Below are positions 4,739 through 30,308 of a stretch of DNA of 32,000 nt, in pieces. The number at the start of each line of letters is the position of its first letter. Positions within the stretch are counted from its first letter, which is position 1. The DNA lies in the NCBI RefSeq assembly GCF_003367075.2, contig NZ_CP065936.1:360001-392000 (forward strand), written 5' to 3'. Both the position numbers and the translations under genes were made by a program. This stretch comes from Cylindrospermopsis raciborskii Cr2010 (GTDB taxonomy: Bacteria > Cyanobacteriota > Cyanobacteriia > Cyanobacteriales > Nostocaceae). Under the pieces are notes generated by a model that worked only from the letters and a program-made list of their open reading frames with translations, made no database searches and was not told the origin of the DNA.

Positions 4739-4834
4739 TAATTGGGTGAGTGGAATTAAACATGAACTTAGGTTGGGTTGAGGAACGAAACCCAACGCCA
4801 ACCCATCCTACAAATAATTGTGCCTCCCTACTTA
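4739..4834. mobile_element. MITE-like dispersed element, full-length copy with hairpin core
   Basis: It shares GAGTGGAATTAAA...AGGTTGGGTTGA..GAAACCCAAC...CAAATAATTGTGCCTCCCTACTTA with 27951-29090 and 30232-30308. The ends are imperfect inverted repeats (TAA(T/G)TGGGTGAGTGGAATTA versus the reverse complement TAAGTAGGGAGGCACAATTA). The 8-bp stem is GTTGGGTT/AACCCAAC. The element ends 2 nt from the heme oxygenase stop codon. Confidence 0.55.
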
Positions 4835-16468: not shown

Positions 16469-19462
16469 TTAATGCACACCACAAAATGGGTCTCGTTCCC
16501 TATCGATTTCATTGGGTTGTAATTCCAATTCACTATAGTAAACACATCCTGGTTGTTGTAAAGATTCCAGACTATGGGATATCCAATAGGGAACTGCTCC
16601 TGGGTGCATTCTTAATATTCCCTTACTATCTAGGGTGACATAGTATTGACAAGGGTAATCCGTAGAGATTTCTGGTTTGCTAAGGGATCCAATACGGATC
16701 CATTTTTTAGTTTTGGTCAAACTATCGGTTTGACAGATATAGAAATTATGTTGACCATTTTGGGGAAATGGTGGTAAAGGACTACTAATTAATCCCTTTC
16801 CAGTTTCTTTGCTTCCATCTTGTAAGTAATGAAACGTTTCTAATATCTGATTTTGACTGTTGTCAACTGCAAAGACTAAATGATAGGCATCCGGTTGATC
16901 CACTGTAGCAGATTCTAGGACATTGATAGCAATATCACCATCTTTTAAATTGTCATAATCGCCTATAAGGGCAATATTCCATTTTAATTTTCCATCAACA
17001 AATATATCAGAACCAGTTGAATGGGAGTCAATGACAGAATTGATATCAATTCCTGGCACATCTATTAAATAATGGGGACTACCTTGACAGAGTAAAACAG
17101 TAAATTGGAGAGTTTGGTCAATTTCAAATTGGACTTGAATTTTTTTGAGAAATTCAGCTTCTTCCATCCTCAAATTTTCCATGAGAGTTTTACCATCAAA
17201 ACTACCCCAAAGACGTAATTCCCCATCTTGGTAATCTTGACGATAGATGATATTAGTTAATTGAATACCTTGCCAAGTTGTTCTTACTTTAGCGACACTT
17301 TCCCAAGGGATAAGTTGATAGAGTTCTTGTCCAGCATTAAAAATAGATAATAATTCCTGAGTTTGGGTTTTGCGCTTGAAGTTGCAGGGTAAATAATAAA
17401 ATAGATTTTTCACATCTATTTCCAGCTGATTTGCTCCCTTGCGCAGTAAACTTTTAGAAGCTTCCGGATCAAATCTTAACCTTCTTAATTTTTCCGCGTA
17501 ACAAGCACCAGCAGAAGTTGCTAATTTAGTAAATTCTAGGACAAAAGTAATCCGTTCGGGATTCCAGATAAAGTAGGGAGATTTGCTAAATTCTTGGTAA
17601 ATTTGGGTTTTCACCAAATCCAGATTACAAGTTTTACCTGAGAGAATTAACCAATCTACCTTTTCATCTCCATTTAAACGACTTTCCATCAGTCCTTTGG
17701 CGATTCCTATGGCTTCTCTAATACTAGAAATAGCACAACGTTGAAATTGTTGGGCGTTTATAGTTAGGTAAATAGAATCAGCACCAACCAGTTGAAATTT
17801 CACACCACTTTGTAAAAGCAACTCGCTAATTTCTTGCTCATTGAGGGTAAAGGTTAATAAACTATCTTCAGCTCCTTTCTCCCCTAATTTTAATTTGGCG
17901 GATTCTGCATATTCCCACAGAGTATAGAAGGTTTGGAGACGTTGAGGAGCTTGTTGCCATCGAGTTGGTAAGACTTTTTCAGCGGTGTCTAAAGCGTCTT
18001 TGAAAGCAACATCCCCTTCTGGATTCTCTTTGTCCACACATTTTAATAAACTGCCACTTTTAAATTTGCTCTCTTGTAAAAAGCGCTCGTTGAGTTCTGA
18101 ATTAATTAAGTCCTCTAGCTTATCACTGGTTATATCGCCATCGGTAACCGCTGTTAATAAAAAATCAGCCAGGGCAATTTTTAACAATCGAAAAACTCGT
18201 AAGGTGATTAATTCCCCACCTAATTGTAAATGTCCTGAAGAACCCAATAATTTTGGTGTCAGTTTATAATAACGTCCTCCCAAACCTCTATCCTCACTAT
18301 TGGCAAAAACAGGAGTTTTATCTTCTAGGGTGAGTTTGATTAATGCTAGGTCGGTCGTACCCCCACCAATGTCCAATACCAGAACATTTTGGGACCAGTT
18401 ATTTTTTTCCTGACGACAACGGGTTTTAAATGATTCAATACCAATATTCAAATTACCACCAAATTCTCGCCATAAAAAGAATATGGCTACGGAAACAGCT
18501 TCGTCATAGGCCGTTTGCACATCATCTAACCCTAATTCCTCTACTAGTGCTTTAATCTCCTTTCGCACCACCGGAGGAGCAACTGTGGGATAGGTGACCA
18601 CCGCTGTCAAAAAGTCCCCTTGAGAAAATCTTCTACCTGCACGTTGACGATAGTCTTCAGTTAATTCAATTAGGTGTCCCCACGCTGCTTGAATTAATTG
18701 GTGAACTTCAATGTTATTATTTTCTAGATCATTTTTTTCTCCCTCATTTATCACCACAGGAAAAGTCCGATTTTGCCCAAAATATCTTTTTGGTGAATGA
18801 TGAAATCTACTAATAATATCTTTAAGTGAATTAATTGTACCCTGGGCGATCGCCTTTTTGCGGTTATCTCTTGCAGCTCTACCCATTTGCAATTTCAATG
18901 GTTGTATTTTACAGATTTCTATTTCACTAGGAATTTCTGTTTGTCTTCTATTAAAATCCAAAACCACTGGAATCAAATTTTGCGACTCTAGGGTAGGAAC
19001 GCGAAAAACCTCATGATATATTTGATAGAGTTTTTTACTGACAGCGCGACGAAATCTTTCACTGTTTCCCAAACATAGTTCAATTTGACGAAGAGCTTCT
19101 AGAAATTTGTCTTTATGGTCGTTTTCAAAAATTTCCCCTATTGTTTCTGGTGGAATTTCCAAATTCCTACCCAGATTGACCAGGAATTTTTCCCATTCGT
19201 TCCCACCAATATCTGGTAGAGCTAAATGGGGAGGTGAGTTTAACCATTCCCCTAACCGCTGACGCAGTCTTACTTCTTGTTCTCTGGGTAGGGTTTCTGC
19301 AATTGGTACTTCAATAGGGTCAAACATCGTTACTGTAGAGTTAGAAGTGCCAAAATCTACTGCCAACCAGCCTGGAAATCTCTTGTTAGAGTCTTCATTT
19401 AGTTTTTCACTTAGTTTCTGACTTAATCGGTTAAGGTAAGTGTCTAGTTCAAAATTGTTCAT
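16469..19462 (-). CDS. Atypical giant Hsp70/actin-fold (ASKHA) ATPase, 997 aa
   Basis: Hsp70 nucleotide-binding motifs appear in canonical order. Phosphate-1 is AVDFGTSNS (nt 19337-19357). Next come SPKRYFG, then AVVTYPTVAPPVVRKEIKALVEELGL, then YDEAVSVAIFF. Phosphate-2 is VLVLDIGGGTTDLALI (nt 18350-18373), followed by HLQLGGELIT. The adenosine motif is WLILSGKTCNLDLVK, followed by ATSAGACYAE. The ~340 C-terminal residues are unassigned. Confidence 0.85.
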   Translation of the reverse strand: MNNFELDTYLNRLSQKLSEKLNEDSNKRFPGWLAVDFGTSNSTVTMFDPIEVPIAETLPREQEVRLRQRLGEWLNSPPHLALPDIGGNEWEKFLVNLGRNLEIPPETIGEIFENDHKDKFLEALRQIELCLGNSERFRRAVSKKLYQIYHEVFRVPTLESQNLIPVVLDFNRRQTEIPSEIEICKIQPLKLQMGRAARDNRKKAIAQGTINSLKDIISRFHHSPKRYFGQNRTFPVVINEGEKNDLENNNIEVHQLIQAAWGHLIELTEDYRQRAGRRFSQGDFLTAVVTYPTVAPPVVRKEIKALVEELGLDDVQTAYDEAVSVAIFFLWREFGGNLNIGIESFKTRCRQEKNNWSQNVLVLDIGGGTTDLALIKLTLEDKTPVFANSEDRGLGGRYYKLTPKLLGSSGHLQLGGELITLRVFRLLKIALADFLLTAVTDGDITSDKLEDLINSELNERFLQESKFKSGSLLKCVDKENPEGDVAFKDALDTAEKVLPTRWQQAPQRLQTFYTLWEYAESAKLKLGEKGAEDSLLTFTLNEQEISELLLQSGVKFQLVGADSIYLTINAQQFQRCAISSIREAIGIAKGLMESRLNGDEKVDWLILSGKTCNLDLVKTQIYQEFSKSPYFIWNPERITFVLEFTKLATSAGACYAEKLRRLRFDPEASKSLLRKGANQLEIDVKNLFYYLPCNFKRKTQTQELLSIFNAGQELYQLIPWESVAKVRTTWQGIQLTNIIYRQDYQDGELRLWGSFDGKTLMENLRMEEAEFLKKIQVQFEIDQTLQFTVLLCQGSPHYLIDVPGIDINSVIDSHSTGSDIFVDGKLKWNIALIGDYDNLKDGDIAINVLESATVDQPDAYHLVFAVDNSQNQILETFHYLQDGSKETGKGLISSPLPPFPQNGQHNFYICQTDSLTKTKKWIRIGSLSKPEISTDYPCQYYVTLDSKGILRMHPGAVPYWISHSLESLQQPGCVYYSELELQPNEIDRERDPFCGVH

Positions 19463-19508
19463 AGTTTATTTGTTATTGGTTTTTATTGTCACTACAGGTA
19501 AAACTACT

Positions 19509-22070
19509 TTAAGTGTACTCATAGATATGTTGCTGGTCAATAGATGCAATATCACTAAGAATTTCCAACCAGGTAGGTATGGTCAATTCTAAGGTTGTGT
19601 CTCCAGCAGCAATATATCTAAGTAGTTCTTCTTTTTTCAATAAGTTTTGCAAACTGGGGATGATTTGATCTAAGATTCCCTCCAATTCTAAATTTATCTG
19701 TCGGTTTACTTCGCTCACATATTGAATCAAATGTAAACTAGCACTAGTAATAATTTCATCTCTTAATCGTAAAATAAAAACTTGGTGATTTGTACTGCTA
19801 GACAAATATTGACTTCTTTCCACAGACCAATCAAATACTTGTCCTGTATCATGCTTCTCATCCTGTTTGGCTAGGGGAAATATATTTTCCGGTATTATGG
19901 GTTTATCTTGATTCTCTATTTCCTCAATAATTGCCTCCTTCCATTGATTTGGTTTTGATGCTAACAACAGTCTATAGAATAGGTCTGCTGCTTCTGCTCC
20001 AAACTTATCTTCCATCAATTCTTCCAGTTCGGGATTGAGCGCTAATTTTTCTGACTCCAAATTGATGGTATTAGTTAATTTGACCAATAAATCTATTACA
20101 GATTGCCTAATACAATCTCTAGCAAATTTTTCCATATCTTTAATAGTTTGGGCAAAAACGGGATAGAAATCATCACTTTTCGTGGGCAATGTATTATTAA
20201 CCTTGGTTCCACGATCTGCACGATCAAATAATTTCCCCGCCGCACCTTTAGATTCTACCAAGGCAATTCTACCACCTTGCAATTTATTAAAAAATAAAGT
20301 CCACTGATTCCAGCTGAGAATTTGATAAGTTAATTCATCTTTGATAAGACTACTAACTACTAAACCACGTCTATCTTTTAGAGGTTCCTTACCCAAATCC
20401 CTACGAAAATTACGGTAGACTTTATCCAAACTCTCAATAGCCAATCGCAAATCAACTAGGGCTTGACTATCAGCAGCAGGTACGCCCTGGGCCTGAATTT
20501 CAGCCACAATATCTTTCAATTGTTCCTGTTGTTGACGAATAAGATCCGCCCCTCTGCGAGTATCTTCATATAACTGTTTTAACCCATGGGTATTCACATG
20601 ATTTTGAATCAATTCCCTTAACTTGCTCACACCTCCATCCCGAGCAAAATAATCCAATTGTCTACCCAAAATACTGCGGGAATCCTGGCTTAATAATTTC
20701 TGGCTTAACCTCCCCCATTTTTCTTGTAATTTTTTTGGTCGTTCCAGATAATCGGGATAATCTATATTTGCCAAAAATTCATCTGAACCAGCTTTCACCT
20801 TAGTTGAACGTTTGGATAATTCCGCTAACCCCAACAATGGCGATAATAGAACAATTCTGTCATCTTCACTGGTAAAAGCTCTCCCACTATCAATAATAGT
20901 TTCCAAAATTTTTAAATTTTCTAAAACTACTTCAGTTTCTAAAGCTTTATCATGGTATTCTTCAGCAATTAGACTGTCTAAAATCCTTTCCCCCCCTTCA
21001 TTCTCTAAAGGTAATTGATCGAAACGTCCTACCCCTACCAAAATTAAATCCTTTAAATCTTGACCTGGACGCTGTTGCTGCATCATCGTAAATATCTTAT
21101 TGGCGCGATCGCTCCCTGGGGATTTGCCATTTAATAGCACCAAAATAGTTTGTACCTGAGCTAATTCTCGTAAAGAAAGAAAAGTATCTCTAGCACCGGA
21201 ATTGGCTGCACCCAACCCAGGAAAATCCAACAGAACAAATTCTTCTGCTCCGGTCAAATCCCAAATTTCCCTAGATATTTTCACCTGAATATCCACTCTC
21301 CGAATCAAGGGAAAACTATTTTGTAATAATTGGGATGGCAAAATTTGTGGCGCTTTGGGCAATCTAATATGAGCTGGAGGTAAATCCTCAAATCGTAACG
21401 TTTGAATTGCCATAGGCAATTCAACTAACTGTAGACCATTTTTGGCAGTTTTGGCATCAATAGTATAGGTTTTATCACATAGAGATTCACCATAAGCTTG
21501 ATAAGAACGTAAAAATAATACTAACTCTCGTAATAAATAGCGCAGTTCCAAATTATTAGAGCTTTGCCAAGCTTCTTCACACCAGGAAGAAATATCCTTA
21601 CCAGTTTTAATTTTACCAACCTGTAAAGGTGGTAACCCAGCAGCAACCGCACGGCGATTGGCTTCCGATAACATAAAATGTAAACATTCGTTCACACCCT
21701 CATGAGATAAATACTCAACACTATAACTAGTTACTTGAGTAGTACTAAAATTCTCCTGTAGTTGAATATGAATAGCAGTGACATTTCCCGTCGTAGGATT
21801 TTCACTAACTGGTAGAGCATCCGCATAACCAATTAAACTACCCAACAACAAACTTTTGCCACTGCTAAACTCGCCCATGACACCAATTTTCACAGGAGAG
21901 TTAGCCATTTCCACTGTTTTTTCAGCAGCACCTCGTAACTGCAGTAAACATTCATCTAAACGGGAGGGAATCCAATCTTCCTGCTCAGACAGATGGAGAG
22001 GTACAGAGTCAATTTTACGAAGGATAAATTCAGCGTAGTCTTGAAACCTGGTTAATTTGTCTAGTTCCAT
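19509..22070 (-). CDS. Dynamin-like GTPase (bacterial DLP family), 853 aa
   Basis: G1 is IGVMGEFSSGKSLLLGSLIG (GEFSSGKS at nt 21852-21875), G2 is NPTTG, G3 is LLDFPGLG and G4 is VGVGRFD. A long predicted helical stalk follows (LRELIQNHV...QQQEQLKDIVAEIQ...). No TM segment is evident by eye. Confidence 0.85.
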   Translation of the reverse strand: MELDKLTRFQDYAEFILRKIDSVPLHLSEQEDWIPSRLDECLLQLRGAAEKTVEMANSPVKIGVMGEFSSGKSLLLGSLIGYADALPVSENPTTGNVTAIHIQLQENFSTTQVTSYSVEYLSHEGVNECLHFMLSEANRRAVAAGLPPLQVGKIKTGKDISSWCEEAWQSSNNLELRYLLRELVLFLRSYQAYGESLCDKTYTIDAKTAKNGLQLVELPMAIQTLRFEDLPPAHIRLPKAPQILPSQLLQNSFPLIRRVDIQVKISREIWDLTGAEEFVLLDFPGLGAANSGARDTFLSLRELAQVQTILVLLNGKSPGSDRANKIFTMMQQQRPGQDLKDLILVGVGRFDQLPLENEGGERILDSLIAEEYHDKALETEVVLENLKILETIIDSGRAFTSEDDRIVLLSPLLGLAELSKRSTKVKAGSDEFLANIDYPDYLERPKKLQEKWGRLSQKLLSQDSRSILGRQLDYFARDGGVSKLRELIQNHVNTHGLKQLYEDTRRGADLIRQQQEQLKDIVAEIQAQGVPAADSQALVDLRLAIESLDKVYRNFRRDLGKEPLKDRRGLVVSSLIKDELTYQILSWNQWTLFFNKLQGGRIALVESKGAAGKLFDRADRGTKVNNTLPTKSDDFYPVFAQTIKDMEKFARDCIRQSVIDLLVKLTNTINLESEKLALNPELEELMEDKFGAEAADLFYRLLLASKPNQWKEAIIEEIENQDKPIIPENIFPLAKQDEKHDTGQVFDWSVERSQYLSSSTNHQVFILRLRDEIITSASLHLIQYVSEVNRQINLELEGILDQIIPSLQNLLKKEELLRYIAAGDTTLELTIPTWLEILSDIASIDQQHIYEYT

Positions 22071-25803: not shown

Positions 25804-26583
25804 ATGATACGCGTTTTAATTCTTGGTGGTACCGGTGATGCCATAGAAATCACTAACAAAATAAATCAAATTCCGGAAATACAGGCGATCGCATCGTGGG
25901 CGGGTCGAACCAAGAATCCGGTTATGCCCCCTAACGTGCGCATTGGCGGTTTTGGGGGTGTACCTGGGTTAGTAGAATATTTACGGGAACAGAAAATTGA
26001 TATTGTAATTGATGGGAGTCATCCGTTTGCGGATAGGATATCTTGGAATGCGGACACAGCAGCTAGAGAGGTAGGGATTCCCCGATTATTATTTCATCGT
26101 CCAGGTTGGGAAAAAGAACCGGGGGATAATTGGATTGAAGTAGAGAACAATAGGGAAGCTGCGGTCATTTTAGATAAGCAGAGAGTGAGTCACCAAGTTT
26201 TTAAAAACCAAATCAACCCAATCAAAAGAGTTTTTTTAACCATAGGTAGACAAGAAATAGGAGCTTTTGCTCATCTAGAGGAAATATGGTTTTTAATGCG
26301 AATGATTGATCCTCCAGAGGTAGATAGTAAGATTCCGCGTGGAGAGATATTATTCAATAGAGGACCCTTTGATTTGAGAGACGAAAGAGAGATTTGCACC
26401 CGATATAATATAGATGCGATCGTCAGTAAAAACAGTGGGGGGAGCGCCACCTACCCAAAAATTATAGCAGCAAGGGAGATGGGTATACCAGTGGTGATGG
26501 TAAAGCGTCCACCCCTACCACCTGGAGAACAGGTAACAGATGTGGAAGGTGTGATCAATTGGCTAATAGATAAAATAAGGTAG
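25804..26583 (+). CDS. cobK: Precorrin-6A / cobalt-precorrin-6A reductase
   Basis: 259 aa. MIRVLILGGTGDA, IDGSHPFA and IVSKNSGG are the characteristic CobK/CbiJ motifs. Confidence 0.85.
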   Translation: MIRVLILGGTGDAIEITNKINQIPEIQAIASWAGRTKNPVMPPNVRIGGFGGVPGLVEYLREQKIDIVIDGSHPFADRISWNADTAAREVGIPRLLFHRPGWEKEPGDNWIEVENNREAAVILDKQRVSHQVFKNQINPIKRVFLTIGRQEIGAFAHLEEIWFLMRMIDPPEVDSKIPRGEILFNRGPFDLRDEREICTRYNIDAIVSKNSGGSATYPKIIAAREMGIPVVMVKRPPLPPGEQVTDVEGVINWLIDKIR

Positions 26584-27895
26584 GGATATTTATTTGTATT
26601 AGAGAAATAATTTCTATAACTTGTTTTGTCATTAGAGTTACTGCTATGATGATCATCATAGCCAATGTGATTTTCCCACCGGGAATCAGGGACTGGTAAA
26701 TAGAATTTGGTAGTTTTTGTCGTTGTTGCCAACTAACAATTGCGGGAATAATAGCACCCAAAATTGAAACAGTGAGGATCCCACTATATTCTATAGCTAT
26801 AAAAAAGATGTAGGGGTTGATTGTGCCCAAACCCAGGGGTGGAAGCAGCACCAGAGAGAAAATAGGTAACCGGGAAATTTTCATCTGATTGAGACGGTAA
26901 AGATCCTGAAAGAAATCAATCAATCCATAGACAAAACCAATAAAGGATGTGACAATAGCAAATTCCGAGAACACAGTTAATATGATCGCCAAAACTTCTC
27001 CTGCTCCCCCTGCTTGTAAAACTTGTAAGGGATCGAAAATAGATCCGTTAGGTTGATTTATTTGCCAAAATTCAAAATTCACACTGCCCAAAATAACAGT
27101 ATTCCAGCAAAGAAATAAAATTAGAGGAATACCAGAACCAATGATAATAGATTTTCTAATTTTGGGGATATCTCCTTCCAATTGAGTCACTACCACAGGA
27201 ACAATATTCTGATAAAAAAGAGTCACACAAATAACTGAAATAGCACCACCCACAGCGGTCCAATTTTGGAACAAGAATAGAGAAGTTTTTATATGACCAA
27301 CCCCCAAAAATAATATTCCCATAAAGGAAACAATCACAATTCCTACCAACACATTATTTAATTTTTCCACAAATTTCTCTTTCCCCCAATACAACATCCC
27401 TCCAAATAATATAGTAAAAGTTGTTGTACCTAACCAATGGGGTAAATCCTGATCTAAATTGCATATTTTGGCAAAAGTAGATATGAGGATATCTCCCCCT
27501 CGACTAATATATGCCACCAAAATAGCATAATGCTCAATTAAATAAGCAGCACCTGCTATTCTTGCTCCTAAATTACCCAATTTTTTTTCCACAATTGCCA
27601 AAAAACCAATGTGAGCAATTCCCTCCATACTCATCACATTTACAGTAATTTCTGCAATTAGTAACCCCGATAATAGGGTGTAGAGCCAAACCAGACAAAT
27701 GGCAACATTAGAAGGTAATACACCTGAAGGTAGGGTAACTGCAGGTAGGGCAAGAATACCAGCACCAATGGTAGTTCCAGTGATTAAAGCTGTGCTACCT
27801 AAAAGGCTACCCGGTTGATGATTTAATCGCTCTCCATCAAATTTGAGGTGAGAAAACAATCGGGTGCTTTGGTCTGGGAAATTTTTTTCTGGCAT
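26555..27895 (-). CDS. Amino-acid permease of the aromatic amino acid (TyrP/Mtr, HAAAP-type) family
   Basis: Polytopic, roughly 11 hydrophobic segments. The N-terminal motif LITGTTIGAGILALPAV matches Tyr/Trp-specific permeases. The ATG at 27895 is preferred over the TTG at 27913. The 3' end overlaps the cobK 3' end by 29 nt. Confidence 0.8.
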   Translation of the reverse strand: MPEKNFPDQSTRLFSHLKFDGERLNHQPGSLLGSTALITGTTIGAGILALPAVTLPSGVLPSNVAICLVWLYTLLSGLLIAEITVNVMSMEGIAHIGFLAIVEKKLGNLGARIAGAAYLIEHYAILVAYISRGGDILISTFAKICNLDQDLPHWLGTTTFTILFGGMLYWGKEKFVEKLNNVLVGIVIVSFMGILFLGVGHIKTSLFLFQNWTAVGGAISVICVTLFYQNIVPVVVTQLEGDIPKIRKSIIIGSGIPLILFLCWNTVILGSVNFEFWQINQPNGSIFDPLQVLQAGGAGEVLAIILTVFSEFAIVTSFIGFVYGLIDFFQDLYRLNQMKISRLPIFSLVLLPPLGLGTINPYIFFIAIEYSGILTVSILGAIIPAIVSWQQRQKLPNSIYQSLIPGGKITLAMMIIIAVTLMTKQVIEIISLIQINIPTLFYLLAN

Positions 27896-27950
27896 ATCAC
27901 ACGCTAATGGCAAGTTTTCAAAAACTTATTTTACTATCATTGTAATGTTA

Positions 27951-29090
27951 TAAGTAGGCGAGTGGAATTAAATATAAGATGAACGTAGGTTGGGTTGAAG
28001 CATGAAACCCAACACCCCCATGGGTCTCGTTCCCCCCCACAAATAATTGCGCCCCCCCATACTACCCTTGATAGTTGTAATGAACGTAGGTTGGGTTGAA
28101 GCATGAAACCCAACACCCCCATGGGTCTCGTTCCCCCCCACAAATAATTGCGCCCCCCCATACTACCCTTGATAGTTGTAATGAACGTAGGTTGGGTTGA
28201 AGCATGAAACCCAACACCCCCATGGGTCTCGTTCCCCCCCACAAATAATTGCGCCCCCATACTACCCTTGATAGTTGTAATGAACGTAGGTTGGGTTGAA
28301 GCATGAAACCCAACACCCCCATGGGTCTCGTTCCCCCCCACAAATAATTGCGCCTCCCCATACTACCCTTGATAGTTGTAATGAACGTAGGTTGGGTTGA
28401 AGCATGAAACCCAACACCCCCATGGGTCTCGTTCCCCCACAAATAATTGCGCCCCCATACTACCCTTGATAGTTGTAATGAACGTAGGTTGGGTTGAAGC
28501 ATGAAACCCAACACCCCATGGGTCTCGTTCCCCCCCACAAATAATTGCGCCTCCCCATACTACCCTTGATAGTTGTAATGAACGTAGGTTGGGTTGAAGC
28601 ATGAAACCCAACACCCCCATGGGTCTCGTTCCCCCCCACAAATAATTGCGCCCCCCCATACTACCCTTGATAGTTGTAATGAACGTAGGTTGGGTTGAAG
28701 CATGAAACCCAACACCCCCATGGGTCTCGTTCCCCCCCACAAATAATTGCGCCTCCCCATACTACCCTTGATAGTTGTAATGAACGTAGGTTGGGTTGAA
28801 GCATGAAACCCAACACCCCCATGGGTCTCGTTCCCCCCCACAAATAATTGCGCCTCCCCATACTACCCTTGATAGTTGTAATGAACGTAGGTTGGGTTGA
28901 AGCATGAAACCCAACACCCCCATGGGTCTCGTTCCCCCCCACAAATAATTGCGCCCCCCCATACTACCCTTGATAGTTGTAATGAACGTAGGTTGGGTTG
29001 AAGCATGAAACCCAACACCCCCATGGGTCTCGTTCCCCCCTACAAATAATTGCGCCTCCCCATACTACCTTTGGTAGTTGTAATGTTATA
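27951..29090. repeat. Tandem array: 11 head-to-tail copies of a 97-101 bp unit derived from the MITE-like element
   Basis: The unit landmark GAACGTAGG recurs at 27981, 28082, 28183, 28282, 28383, 28480, 28580, 28681, 28782, 28883 and 28984. The unit is GAACGTAGGTTGGGTTGAAGCATGAAACCCAACA-C(4-5)-ATGGGTCTCGTT-C(5-7)-ACAAATAATTGCG-(C5/C7/CCTCCCC)-ATACTACCCTTGATAGTTGTAAT. There are no unique spacers. Confidence 0.95.
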
Positions 29091-30192
29091 CTACCTTTGG
29101 TAATTTGATAGTGAACGTACTACCTTTACCCAATTGTGAACATAGCTCTATCTTACCCCCATGTGCTTCAACAATGCGTTGGGATAAATGCAATCCTAAA
29201 CCACTACCAGACCTTTTATTTTTACCCTGACGAAATCTTTCAAAAATAATAGTTTGATCTTCCGGTGCTATACCATATCCAGTGTCCGATATCTGAATAA
29301 TAACCTGTGCCATATCTTTGTGGCGGGATTTTTCAAAAATGCTTACCTCCACAGTTCCCTGATCAGTAAATTTGATGGCATTGCCAATTAAATTGTTGAG
29401 AACCCGACGTAATTCTAGCCTATCCCCCAGAACCACATTTGGTTTTTCTAAACCGGTTTCTAATTTCAGAGTTAGGTTTTTTTCCATAGCCAATGGAATC
29501 AATTCATTAACTACTTCCTGAGCTATTTCTTGCAGATCACATGCTTGCAAATTTAAAAACTTCTTATCAGCATCAAACCGATAAACCTCTAAAAGATTAT
29601 TTACCATTTCTAGCAAGTTCTGATTACTGCGAATCATCATAGCGATCGCTTGTTTCATTTCAGGAGGAATTTGACCAAAGGTCTCCTTTTGAAACAGGTC
29701 TAACATACGATCTCCTGCTAATAAAGGAGTGCGCAAATCGTGAGTTAGTCGGGAGACAAAATCTTCTCGTTGTCGACTCATTTTTTGTTGTTCATCAATA
29801 CTGTATTTCAGTCTCAGCAAGCAGCGGACTCTTGCTAATAACTCATTAGTATCAAATGGTTTACGAATAAAATCATCCGCACCCGCATCTAATCCTTCCA
29901 CCACACTAGATTCATCAAAAGCTGTAATCAGTAAAATAGGAATGTAATCAATATTAGTATAGCTACGAATTGCGCGAGTTACTTCATAACCATCCATTTC
30001 TGGCATCATTACGTCCAAAAGAATTAGGTCTGGAGGGGATTGAACCGTTTTTTGTAAAGCTGTTGCTCCATCGGAAACTGAATCAATTGCATACCCTTCA
30101 CTCTCTAATAGGGTTTGGACTAAAATTAAATTATCTCTTCTATCATCGACTACAAGAATACGCGCAACTTGATCACTCTTGCTAACTGACAT
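29086..30192 (-). CDS. Hybrid response-regulator / histidine kinase (REC-HisKA-HATPase_c), soluble
   Basis: The canonical receiver has ILVVDDRRDN, DLILLDVMMPEMDG (Asp60), LLITA and DFIRKP. The H-box is SRLTHDLRTPL, the N-box NLIGNAIKFT, G1 DTGYGI and G2 GSGLGL. No TM segment. Confidence 0.9.
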   Translation of the reverse strand: MSVSKSDQVARILVVDDRRDNLILVQTLLESEGYAIDSVSDGATALQKTVQSPPDLILLDVMMPEMDGYEVTRAIRSYTNIDYIPILLITAFDESSVVEGLDAGADDFIRKPFDTNELLARVRCLLRLKYSIDEQQKMSRQREDFVSRLTHDLRTPLLAGDRMLDLFQKETFGQIPPEMKQAIAMMIRSNQNLLEMVNNLLEVYRFDADKKFLNLQACDLQEIAQEVVNELIPLAMEKNLTLKLETGLEKPNVVLGDRLELRRVLNNLIGNAIKFTDQGTVEVSIFEKSRHKDMAQVIIQISDTGYGIAPEDQTIIFERFRQGKNKRSGSGLGLHLSQRIVEAHGGKIELCSQLGKGSTFTIKLPKVV

Positions 30193-30231: not shown

Positions 30232-30308
30232 TAAGTGGGTGAGTGGAATTAAATATAAGATCAACCATGGGTTAACCCATCCTACAAATAATTGTGCCTC
30301 CCTACTTA
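30232..30308. mobile_element. MITE-like dispersed element, short copy lacking the hairpin core
   Basis: The sequence is TAAGTGGGTGAGTGGAATTAAATATAAGA...CCCATCCTACAAATAATTGTGCCTCCCTACTTA. Both arms are shared with 4739-4834, but the AGGTTGGGTT...AACCCAAC core is replaced by TCAACCATGGGTTAA. It lies between the two kinase genes, 20 nt after the upstream kinase stop. Confidence 0.5.

Follow-up and report, generated by a model that had tools for sequence, protein, structure and literature searches.

What kind of sequence fills the space between two bacterial genes with eleven near-identical tandem units of about 101 bp, and how would it have come to be there? The space in question lies between a hybrid histidine-kinase gene and an amino-acid permease gene of the cyanobacterium Cylindrospermopsis raciborskii Cr2010, in a stretch of 32,000 nt (contig NZ_CP065936.1, positions 360,001 to 392,000) that was analyzed as a whole and is referred to here as the window; coordinates are those of the window unless another locus is named. 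We conclude, with a probability of roughly 0.78, that the block is a young, non-coding, recombination-driven hypervariable minisatellite, that it derives from a mobile element bearing a repetitive extragenic palindrome (REP), and that it is probably carried passively.

The array unit and its parent element

Tandem Repeats Finder reported a single array in the 32-kb window (Table 1), with a period of 101 bp, 11.0 copies, 97% matches and a score of 2109. A unit table made by cutting the array at the fixed motif GAACGTAGG placed the unit starts at 27981, 28082 and onward to 28984, with successive periods of 101, 101, 99, 101, 97, 100, 101, 101, 101 and 101 bp. On the minus strand, which is the strand of both flanking genes, the unit reads ATTACAACTATCAAGGGTAGTAT-G7-CGCAATTATTTGT-G7-AACGAGACCCAT-G5-T-hairpin-CTACGTTC. 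Units differ from one another in the lengths of G/C homopolymers (7 versus 5, 5 versus 4) and in a recurrent C/T change (GGGGAGG versus G7 on the minus strand); unit 11, at the kinase-side edge, has a variant tail with three further substitutions. A preliminary description, made from the letters of this stretch alone, had listed the same eleven copies and periods, the periods being reproduced exactly by cutting at the fixed motif, as well as a hairpin with an 8-bp stem in each unit, found 11 times in the array by pattern search, and the kinase stop and permease start on the minus strand, which agree with the gene calls. It had also let the array begin at 27951 and fill the whole intergenic space. 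The array does occupy almost all of that space, leaving 83 bp (27896-27978) before the permease start, and positions 27951-27978 lie outside the repeat, being part of an unamplified arm of the parent element.

Comparison of filled and empty sites defined the inserted DNA. A spacer of 39 bp separates the kinase stop codon from the permease ATG in array-free strains (CENA302, CENA303, Raphidiopsis brookii D9 and a number of further assemblies). The kinase of these strains ends in KLPMIVK, whereas that of the strains with the array ends in KLPKVV, encoded by the inserted DNA. The distal part of the permease leader, ATGATAGTAAAATAAG (27925-27940), corresponds to the last kinase codons and stop codon of the array-free strains, and the insert is bounded on both sides by a 12-bp direct repeat, TATAACATTACA. 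The 446-aa permease product agrees with gene calls in other assemblies. A local 26-bp repeat covers the kinase stop codon, and the 101-bp unit begins with 23 bp of it. Between 1 and 5 additional copies are present in other strains, and Raphidiopsis curvata NIES-932 has approximately seven copies of a related 26-mer at the same site with no REP (loci compared: L132, 4608-4740, and L139, 4080-4290), indicating that the site is prone to repeat formation independently of the 101-bp array.

The hairpin in each unit is GTTGGGTT-GAAGCATGA-AACCCAAC, or GTTGGGTT-N9-AACCCAAC when written as a search pattern (with its head, GTAGGTTGGGTT...AACCCAAC). The pattern occurs 11 times in the array and once more in the window, at 4772; 0.02 matches would be expected by chance. 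All units have the form C-GTAG-GTTGGGTT...AACCCAAC, with an 8-bp stem, a 9-nt loop and a total of 29 nt including the head. A short palindrome with an adjoining 5' GTAG is the signature of REPs (PMC3733652, PMC6006769), for which the same sources give the head as GT[AG]G; in the array it stands within the expected 0-2 nt 5' of the stem, and the hairpin falls within the REP size range of 20-40 bp with a stem of 6-13 bp, its loop being larger than in most REPs. The hairpin RNA is moderately stable, at -11.4 kcal/mol for the plus strand and -9.4 kcal/mol for the minus strand.

A scan of one genome per species for pairs of such hairpins spaced 60-90 nt from each other gave at least 120 loci. Nearly all are cyanobacterial (Tychonema, Okeania, Microcoleus, Chamaesiphon, Lyngbya, Anabaena/Dolichospermum, Microcystis, Calothrix, Scytonema and others), and some come from metagenome-assembled genomes (MAGs) of Desulfobacteraceae, Poribacteria, Pelolinea, Nitrospirae and Caldithrix; at least 20 of the 120 loci scanned come from a single MAG. 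The 356 hairpins in 120 loci have the consensus (T/C)GTAGG-TTGGGTT-GAGGAACGA-AACCCAA-CA, also given as (T/C)GTAGGTTGGGTTGAGGAACGAAACCCAACA; the GTAG head is present in approximately 90% of them, and 21 have the loop of the array, GAAGCATGA. We identify the array hairpin as a GTAG-headed REP; its family occurs across cyanobacteria, is abundant in other genomes of that phylum, and reaches into a few further phyla. GTAG families have been described in cyanobacteria, among them GTAG-15 with loops of 9-15 nt (Di Nocera, De Gregorio & Rocco 2013, PMC3733652); the array hairpin has a similarly large loop and may be a member of that family.

An all-versus-all comparison of the open reading frames in the 120 loci yielded one small recurrent family, consisting of proteins of approximately 180 aa at 10 loci, and in each of these the gene has the hairpins on both sides. 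Three of the proteins were tested and scored 203-219 bits (cutoff 80) against NCBIfam NF047646, the REP-associated tyrosine transposase (RAYT), one of them also matching Pfam Y1_Tnp. Their motifs DHLH, WE and YIHYNP are those of subclass 2.2 (group 2), which includes the Escherichia coli enzyme (PMC6006769). Thus, in other genomes, RAYT genes are flanked by the same REPs as are found in the array. The RAYT family has 7916 members at E<=1e-30. REP-RAYT systems are usually regarded as lineage-specific and vertically inherited. Here, one REP sequence and its RAYT are kept across cyanobacteria, Desulfobacteraceae, Poribacteria, Nitrospirae and Anaerolineae (for example L023, L057, L074, L085, L091, L101 and L115), and the RAYTs of Nostoc and Desulfobacteraceae are approximately 68% identical, which is unusually conserved for proteins of different phyla.

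A repeat search of the whole window related the array unit to two single copies of a composite element, at 4739-4834 and 30232-30308, placed between other pairs of minus-strand genes. Their common arms, TAAGTRGGYGAGTGGAATTAAAYAT... and ...CCTACAAATAATTGYGCCTCCCTACTTA, are imperfect terminal inverted repeats (TAAGTRGG.GAG ... CTC.CCYACTTA) of a non-coding parent element of approximately 80-125 bp. The hairpin of the 4739 copy has the stem found in the array and a different loop, GAGGAACGA. An intact element is present in Microcystis novacekii (L009), where it reads arm, GTAG-GTTGGGTT-loop-AACCCAAC, 5 nt, GATGGGTT-loop-AACCCATC-CTAC, arm; in other words, two GTAG-headed hairpins lie with their heads outward within inverted arms. 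Comparison of the array unit with this copy and with the two in the window resolves it into an intact hairpin, a decayed partner hairpin (ATGGGTCTCGTTCCCCCCCAC), one arm and 23 bp of the 26-bp repeat. The unit begins 6 nt 5' of the REP head and runs through the REP, the decayed partner and the arm into the local 26-bp repeat, which obscures the edges of the founder copy.

The copy at 30232, upstream of a kinase start, is an insertion polymorphism, as determined by comparing the window with L122, L133, L139, L143 and L146. CENA302-type strains and R. curvata have an empty site, AGATATTA joined directly to AACTAAATTT; in the window and CP091284 the filled site is flanked on each side by ATTA, a short duplication of ATTA/TA. 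In LYXA01, of the CS-505-type lineage, a deletion removes the element along with the last 21 codons of the upstream kinase. Since this copy is present or absent among strains, the composite element family has been mobile within the species complex. Only some members of the C. raciborskii lineage have a composite element in the terminal codons of the kinase.

The arm and REP of the window (27951-28013), including the loop GAAGCATGA, are nearly identical to those of Microcystis (L009, 4291-4430; L088, 6099-6366). Microcystis and Cylindrospermopsis belong to different cyanobacterial orders, yet have the same composite element, which suggests that it may have spread horizontally between co-occurring bloom formers. 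In the L088 locus, the arm and REP form a 109-bp tandem duplication of 2.5 copies.

Table 1. Coordinates of the array, its parts and its neighbors in the window
Feature	Position	Strand	Basis and remarks
Tandem array, 11 head-to-tail units of ~101 bp	27979..29085	.	Tandem Repeats Finder and unit table; plus-strand unit start ATGAACGTAGG
First of 11 REP hairpins	27985..28013	+	GTAG head, then GTTGGGTT / GAAGCATGA / AACCCAAC; pattern search
Other ten stem-loops (starts)	28090, 28191, 28290, 28391, 28488, 28588, 28689, 28790, 28891, 28992	+	All in the same orientation as the first
Decayed partner REP and left arm, unit 1 as example (ACCCCCATGGGTCTCGTTCCCCCCCACAAATAATTGCGCCCCCCCATA)	28014..28061	+	Counterpart in the intact Microcystis element: GCCCCGATGGGTTACGAAGTGCGCTAACCCATCCTACAAATAATTGTGCCTCCCTACTTA
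Unamplified arm of the parent element, TAAGTAGGCGAGTGGAATTAAATATAAGAT	27951..27980	+	Common to the copies at 4739, 30232 and Microcystis
12-bp direct repeat TATAACATTACA (minus strand), permease-side edge of the insert	27941..27952	.	Twin at 29079-29090
Local 26-bp repeat, 1.7 copies	29058..29102	-	29077-29102 TACCAAAGGTAGTATAACATTACAAC; partial copy 29058-29076
Conserved permease leader	27896..27940	-	Comparison of empty and filled sites
Hybrid response-regulator/histidine-kinase gene, 368 aa	29086..30192	-	Pfam; stop codon 29086-29088
Tyr/Trp-type amino-acid permease gene, 446 aa from ATG at 27895	26555..27895	-	Pfam Trp_Tyr_perm 6.6e-77; homologue names
Single composite element copy with one REP (4772-4796, loop GAGGAACGA)	4739..4834	+	Between heme-oxygenase and HemN-like genes
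Single composite element copy without GTTGGGTT REP	30232..30308	+	Between two kinase genes; insertion polymorphism among strains

Variation between strains and related arrays

We found the exact kinase protein in 21 public contigs; look-ups of kinase variants from other strains gave further alleles of the same kinase-permease junction. The array is present in seven long contigs (1-4 Mb). There are 11 units in the window, in CP091284 (3.8 Mb) and in CP195152 (4.0 Mb); 10 in LYXA01 (4.0 Mb), five of which are 111 bp long through a 10-bp duplication; 15 in VHLJ01 (1.0 Mb); 18 in JBPFSD01 (4.1 Mb), along with five extra copies of the 26-bp repeat; and 20-21 in CP073250 (3.9 Mb). The window and assembly L122 may represent one strain. 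Three short-read assemblies have 2-4 units, possibly collapsed, and seven short-read contigs break off 1.4-3.7 units into the array. The flanks of these alleles are 99.2-99.9% identical to those of the window. With the insert-free state included, the long contigs have 0, 10, 11, 11, 11, 15, 18 and 20-21 units, which is the behavior of a variable-number tandem repeat (VNTR) or minisatellite. The order of the unit variants differs as well, even among the assemblies with 11 units. In the two longest arrays the edge-unit variant reappears in the interior, preceded by a 119-bp unit holding part of the 26-bp repeat, indicating that whole blocks of units were duplicated again. The recent amplification or continuing homogenization proposed in the preliminary description, and its suggestion of a recombination hotspot of variable copy number, are borne out by this range of copy number, by the varied unit order between near-identical flanks, and by the clade without the insert.

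Homopolymer lengths (G7 to G5 or G6, G5 to G4) vary among units only in the window and in VHLJ01. When the window was compared with four other long assemblies (L122, L149, L132 and L150), the homopolymers of the latter were found to be uniform save for one G8 run. In the four cleanest assemblies all standard units measure exactly 101 bp, the exceptions being three longer variants (119, 102 and 181 bp); it is therefore probable that homopolymer miscalls gave rise to the units of 97, 99 and 100 bp in the window and VHLJ01. This points to uncorrected long-read errors in the window assembly, possibly outside the array too.

In the CS-505 draft (ACYA01; L135, 4608-5600) and in L136 (4608-4870), what comes after the array, or after a single unit, is another copy of the composite element together with unrelated genes (DUF6671; GUN4), and not the permease. 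This arrangement reflects either recombination between dispersed elements or an assembly mis-join.

The locus provides a highly polymorphic marker for strain typing of a toxic, invasive bloom-former, with states (insert absent, 26-bp repeat only, 10 to approximately 21 units) that separate lineages whose flanks are more than 99% identical. To our knowledge, the kinase-permease VNTR has not been described as a typing marker, and full-text literature searches with accessions, sequences, and the species name plus tandem repeat returned nothing relevant to the locus. A scan of metagenomes for the unit-junction sequence gave 0 matches. The locus also accounts for recurrent contig breaks, and for possible mis-joins, in short-read C. 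raciborskii assemblies. Empty site, single element and array form a series that offers a stepwise view of how a REP-bearing mobile element can rewrite the end of a gene and then become a spacer on the kilobase scale between two genes that were once adjacent.

In the 120 loci, Tandem Repeats Finder reported many arrays with a hairpin-bearing unit; their periods range between 35 and 105 bp, and copy numbers reach 9.3. Examples are those of Microcoleus (L016, 45 bp, 9.3 copies), Anabaena (L087, 50 bp, 8.2 copies), Pelolinea (L098, 47 bp, 6.4 copies), Okeania (L010, 101 bp, 5 copies), Tychonema (L018, 102 bp, 4 copies) and Dolichospermum (L056, 87 bp, 4 copies); the sample is biased toward arrays since the query demanded two hairpins. 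The array between the kinase and the permease, at 1.1-2.2 kb across strains as against 0.5 kb or less for the others, is therefore unusual in size and not in kind. The preliminary description had called satellite-like arrays of this unit length and purity uncommon in bacterial chromosomes; arrays of hairpin-bearing units are frequent in cyanobacteria.

Origin of the array and the alternatives

The sequence data are consistent with the following course of events. A single composite element would have entered the last codons of the kinase in part of the lineage. The unit junction on the plus strand is GTTGTA/ATGAAC, and the junction and the two outer edges have only ATG in common, a 3-nt microhomology (ATG/CAT), which points to an illegitimate first duplication; illegitimate recombination or slippage at these 3 nt would have produced two direct repeats of 101 bp. 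The array could then have been expanded, contracted and homogenized by unequal homologous recombination or by slippage in replication, processes that would account for the range of copy number, for the identical interior with a diverged edge unit, and for the repeated duplication of blocks. The microhomology, the copy-number range and the unit patterns are observed, and it is from these that we infer the mechanism. The array would have no gene-like function of its own and would ride on read-through transcripts. As side effects, genes formerly 39 bp apart would have been pushed apart, their coupling likely being weakened, and the last codons of the kinase would have been rewritten.

Several points weigh against a passively carried product of ordinary recombination. 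Neutrality is something that we infer from the absence of signals. At least 10 copies have been kept in all seven long contigs that bear the insert, which could reflect selection, or else expansion that outpaces loss. No RAYT is encoded in the 32-kb window, and no Cylindrospermopsis protein is among the 120 best named RAYT homologues. Lastly, array boundaries are not placed at random. We set the GTAG head 5' in 24 hairpin-bearing arrays (23 from loci in the range L008-L116, and that of the window) and found the boundary to lie no more than 9 nt upstream of the head in 20 of the 24, where a uniform phase predicts 4.3; none of 200,000 simulations reached 20, arrays from the same genome not being independent samples. 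Half of the arrays (12/24) have near-integer copy numbers, with a unit made up of the REP and its downstream flank, and the array of the window fits this pattern, its boundary being 6 nt from the head and its copy number 11.0. Recombination with random breakpoints does not predict such a bias, which suggests a REP-specific step in array formation.

One form that such a step could take is amplification driven by a RAYT and anchored at the REP. The REP with its 3' flank would act as a tiny element of the IS200/IS605 type, excised in single-stranded form and re-inserted by its own head, so that the head-to-tail array would not be the work of plain homologous recombination. GTAG selects the CT or CA dinucleotides at which RAYTs cut single-stranded DNA on the 5' and 3' sides of REPs (PMC8266576), and a REP-anchored step is for that reason conceivable; RAYT genes also sit among hairpin arrays in L057, L091 and L101, and the boundary bias and near-integer copy numbers speak for it too. 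The junction in the window, however, has neither CT nor CA, and the absence of a RAYT from the window and of Cylindrospermopsis from the named homologues counts against this alternative as well. Blocks containing the edge unit along with a partial 26-bp repeat were duplicated anew, a pattern that resembles unequal crossing-over, and stalling of replication at the foot of the hairpin would give the same bias in boundaries. We consider RAYT-driven amplification of this array unlikely, and it is likewise only tentatively that we suggest that arrays of this REP family in general are built by a REP-anchored, possibly RAYT-catalyzed copying and re-insertion that starts a few nucleotides 5' of the GTAG head. 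If this did occur, REPs would have a way of multiplying that has not been described so far. The regular placement of boundaries by the REP head, seen across many genomes, is a clue to local REP multiplication.

Another alternative gives the array a function as a regulatory spacer dependent on copy number, in which 11 transcribed hairpins would attenuate or insulate read-through into the permease gene, or stabilize the 3' end of the kinase mRNA as E. coli REPs do, the length of the array tuning permease expression. The spacing of 39 bp in array-free strains makes it probable that the two genes were co-transcribed, and between them the array introduces 1.1-2.2 kb and 10-21 stable hairpins. The promoter scan gave no consensus promoter in the stretch from the array to the permease start. 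REPs are reported to have effects on transcription termination and mRNA stability (PMC3733652), and it is plausible that the array may influence read-through or the stability of the 3' end of the kinase mRNA. The hairpins are not followed by a U-tract, so they are not intrinsic terminators, and insert-free strains keep the same genes. A tuned length is disfavored because copy number drifts widely among near-identical strains, with no preferred value. As an account of the array, a regulatory spacer therefore appears improbable.

A tandem set of small-RNA genes, like that for NsiR1 upstream of hetF in Nostoc sp. PCC 7120, would have a comparable layout: in this heterocyst-forming cyanobacterium of the Nostocales there are 12 tandem units of approximately 100 bp, and these are identical in the center and diverged at the periphery as in the array (PMC9045159). 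Each NsiR1 unit has its own promoter, of the DIF1 type, and terminator, and gives an RNA of approximately 60 nt. In contrast, neither strand of the array has a TCCGGA (DIF1) motif or a T-run of 4 or more, and the promoter and terminator scan found no sigma-70-like promoter and no intrinsic terminator in it. Rfam, searched at gathering thresholds and at E<=10, matched nothing in the window but a tRNA outside the array. Folding of the unit in three registers on both strands gave z-scores of -0.4 to -0.7, no better than shuffled sequence. The array is unrelated to hetF, is missing from a whole clade of the species complex, and has a unit recognizable as a decayed mobile element. We rejected an NsiR1-like array on these defining features and consider small-RNA genes of any such kind very unlikely. 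The structured RNA that the preliminary description had offered among possible roles finds no support in the same scans, and neither does a promoter or terminator in the units.

That the repeat was expanded by mis-assembly, as the error-like homopolymer differences in the window and L121 and the short-read scaffolds with only 2-4 units might suggest, is scarcely credible: seven long contigs have 10 to approximately 21 units in this position, and seven short-read contigs end inside the array after at least 1.4 units.

Other candidates were tried and set aside. Each minus-strand unit contains a loose G3+N1-15 pattern, but a G-quadruplex was rejected as a driver since folding with quadruplex energies left the pattern unused; the G-runs, moreover, are conserved neither in sister copies nor in every unit (exceptions read GGGGAGG and TAGGGAGG). 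Coding potential was rejected on a period that is no multiple of 3 and a TAG in every unit, and the open reading frames of 134 and 158 aa in the array have no Pfam match. The units are contiguous and the sequence between hairpins is alike in every unit, which excludes a CRISPR array.

Related systems and other features of the window

As a minisatellite derived from a REP-bearing element, the array has features of several known systems. With bacterial VNTR loci, such as are used in multiple-locus VNTR analysis (MLVA), it shares head-to-tail repeats whose copy number varies between near-identical strains. Bacterial interspersed mosaic elements (BIMEs) of E. coli, BIME-2 especially, are likewise regularly spaced clusters of REPs, intergenic or in 3' untranslated regions, with variable numbers of tandem units, and have been proposed to bind proteins and to affect mRNA stability. 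BIME-2 reaches about a dozen units. The array departs from BIMEs in that all 11 of its REPs point the same way, the partner being decayed, whereas REP orientation alternates in BIMEs (PMC2817692).

Clusters of GTAG REPs, and the REP doublets (REPINs) associated with RAYTs, have in common with the array a short extragenic palindrome with a 5' GTAG head (PMC3733652). The inverted doublet of the parent element, with its heads outward, and the flanked RAYT gene of other genomes also correspond to REPIN-RAYT systems. Tandem reiteration of REP clusters together with flanking DNA has been described previously (Di Nocera et al., PMC3733652). The head-to-tail order that the same paper calls rare is that of the array, which differs from those clusters in that its REP is nested in a carrier resembling a MITE (a miniature transposable element with inverted repeats). 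Bacterial MITEs, for example the cyanobacterial Nezha, are similar to the parent element in size, in imperfect terminal inverted repeats and in presence or absence between strains. They differ in that the core of the parent element is a REP doublet and not a deleted insertion sequence, and in that the array is a tandem amplification and no product of transposition.

Elsewhere in the window, two adjacent large genes on the minus strand (16469-22070) look like a bacterial dynamin-like pair. One encodes a protein of 853 aa with a dynamin-family N-terminal GTPase domain, and the 997-aa product of the other matches SrfB weakly and below threshold. At 2564-2646 lies a tRNA-Leu (GAG) gene whose variable arm is long. 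The window also contains 13 sites of the highly iterated palindrome HIP1 (GCGATCGC), as expected in a cyanobacterium.

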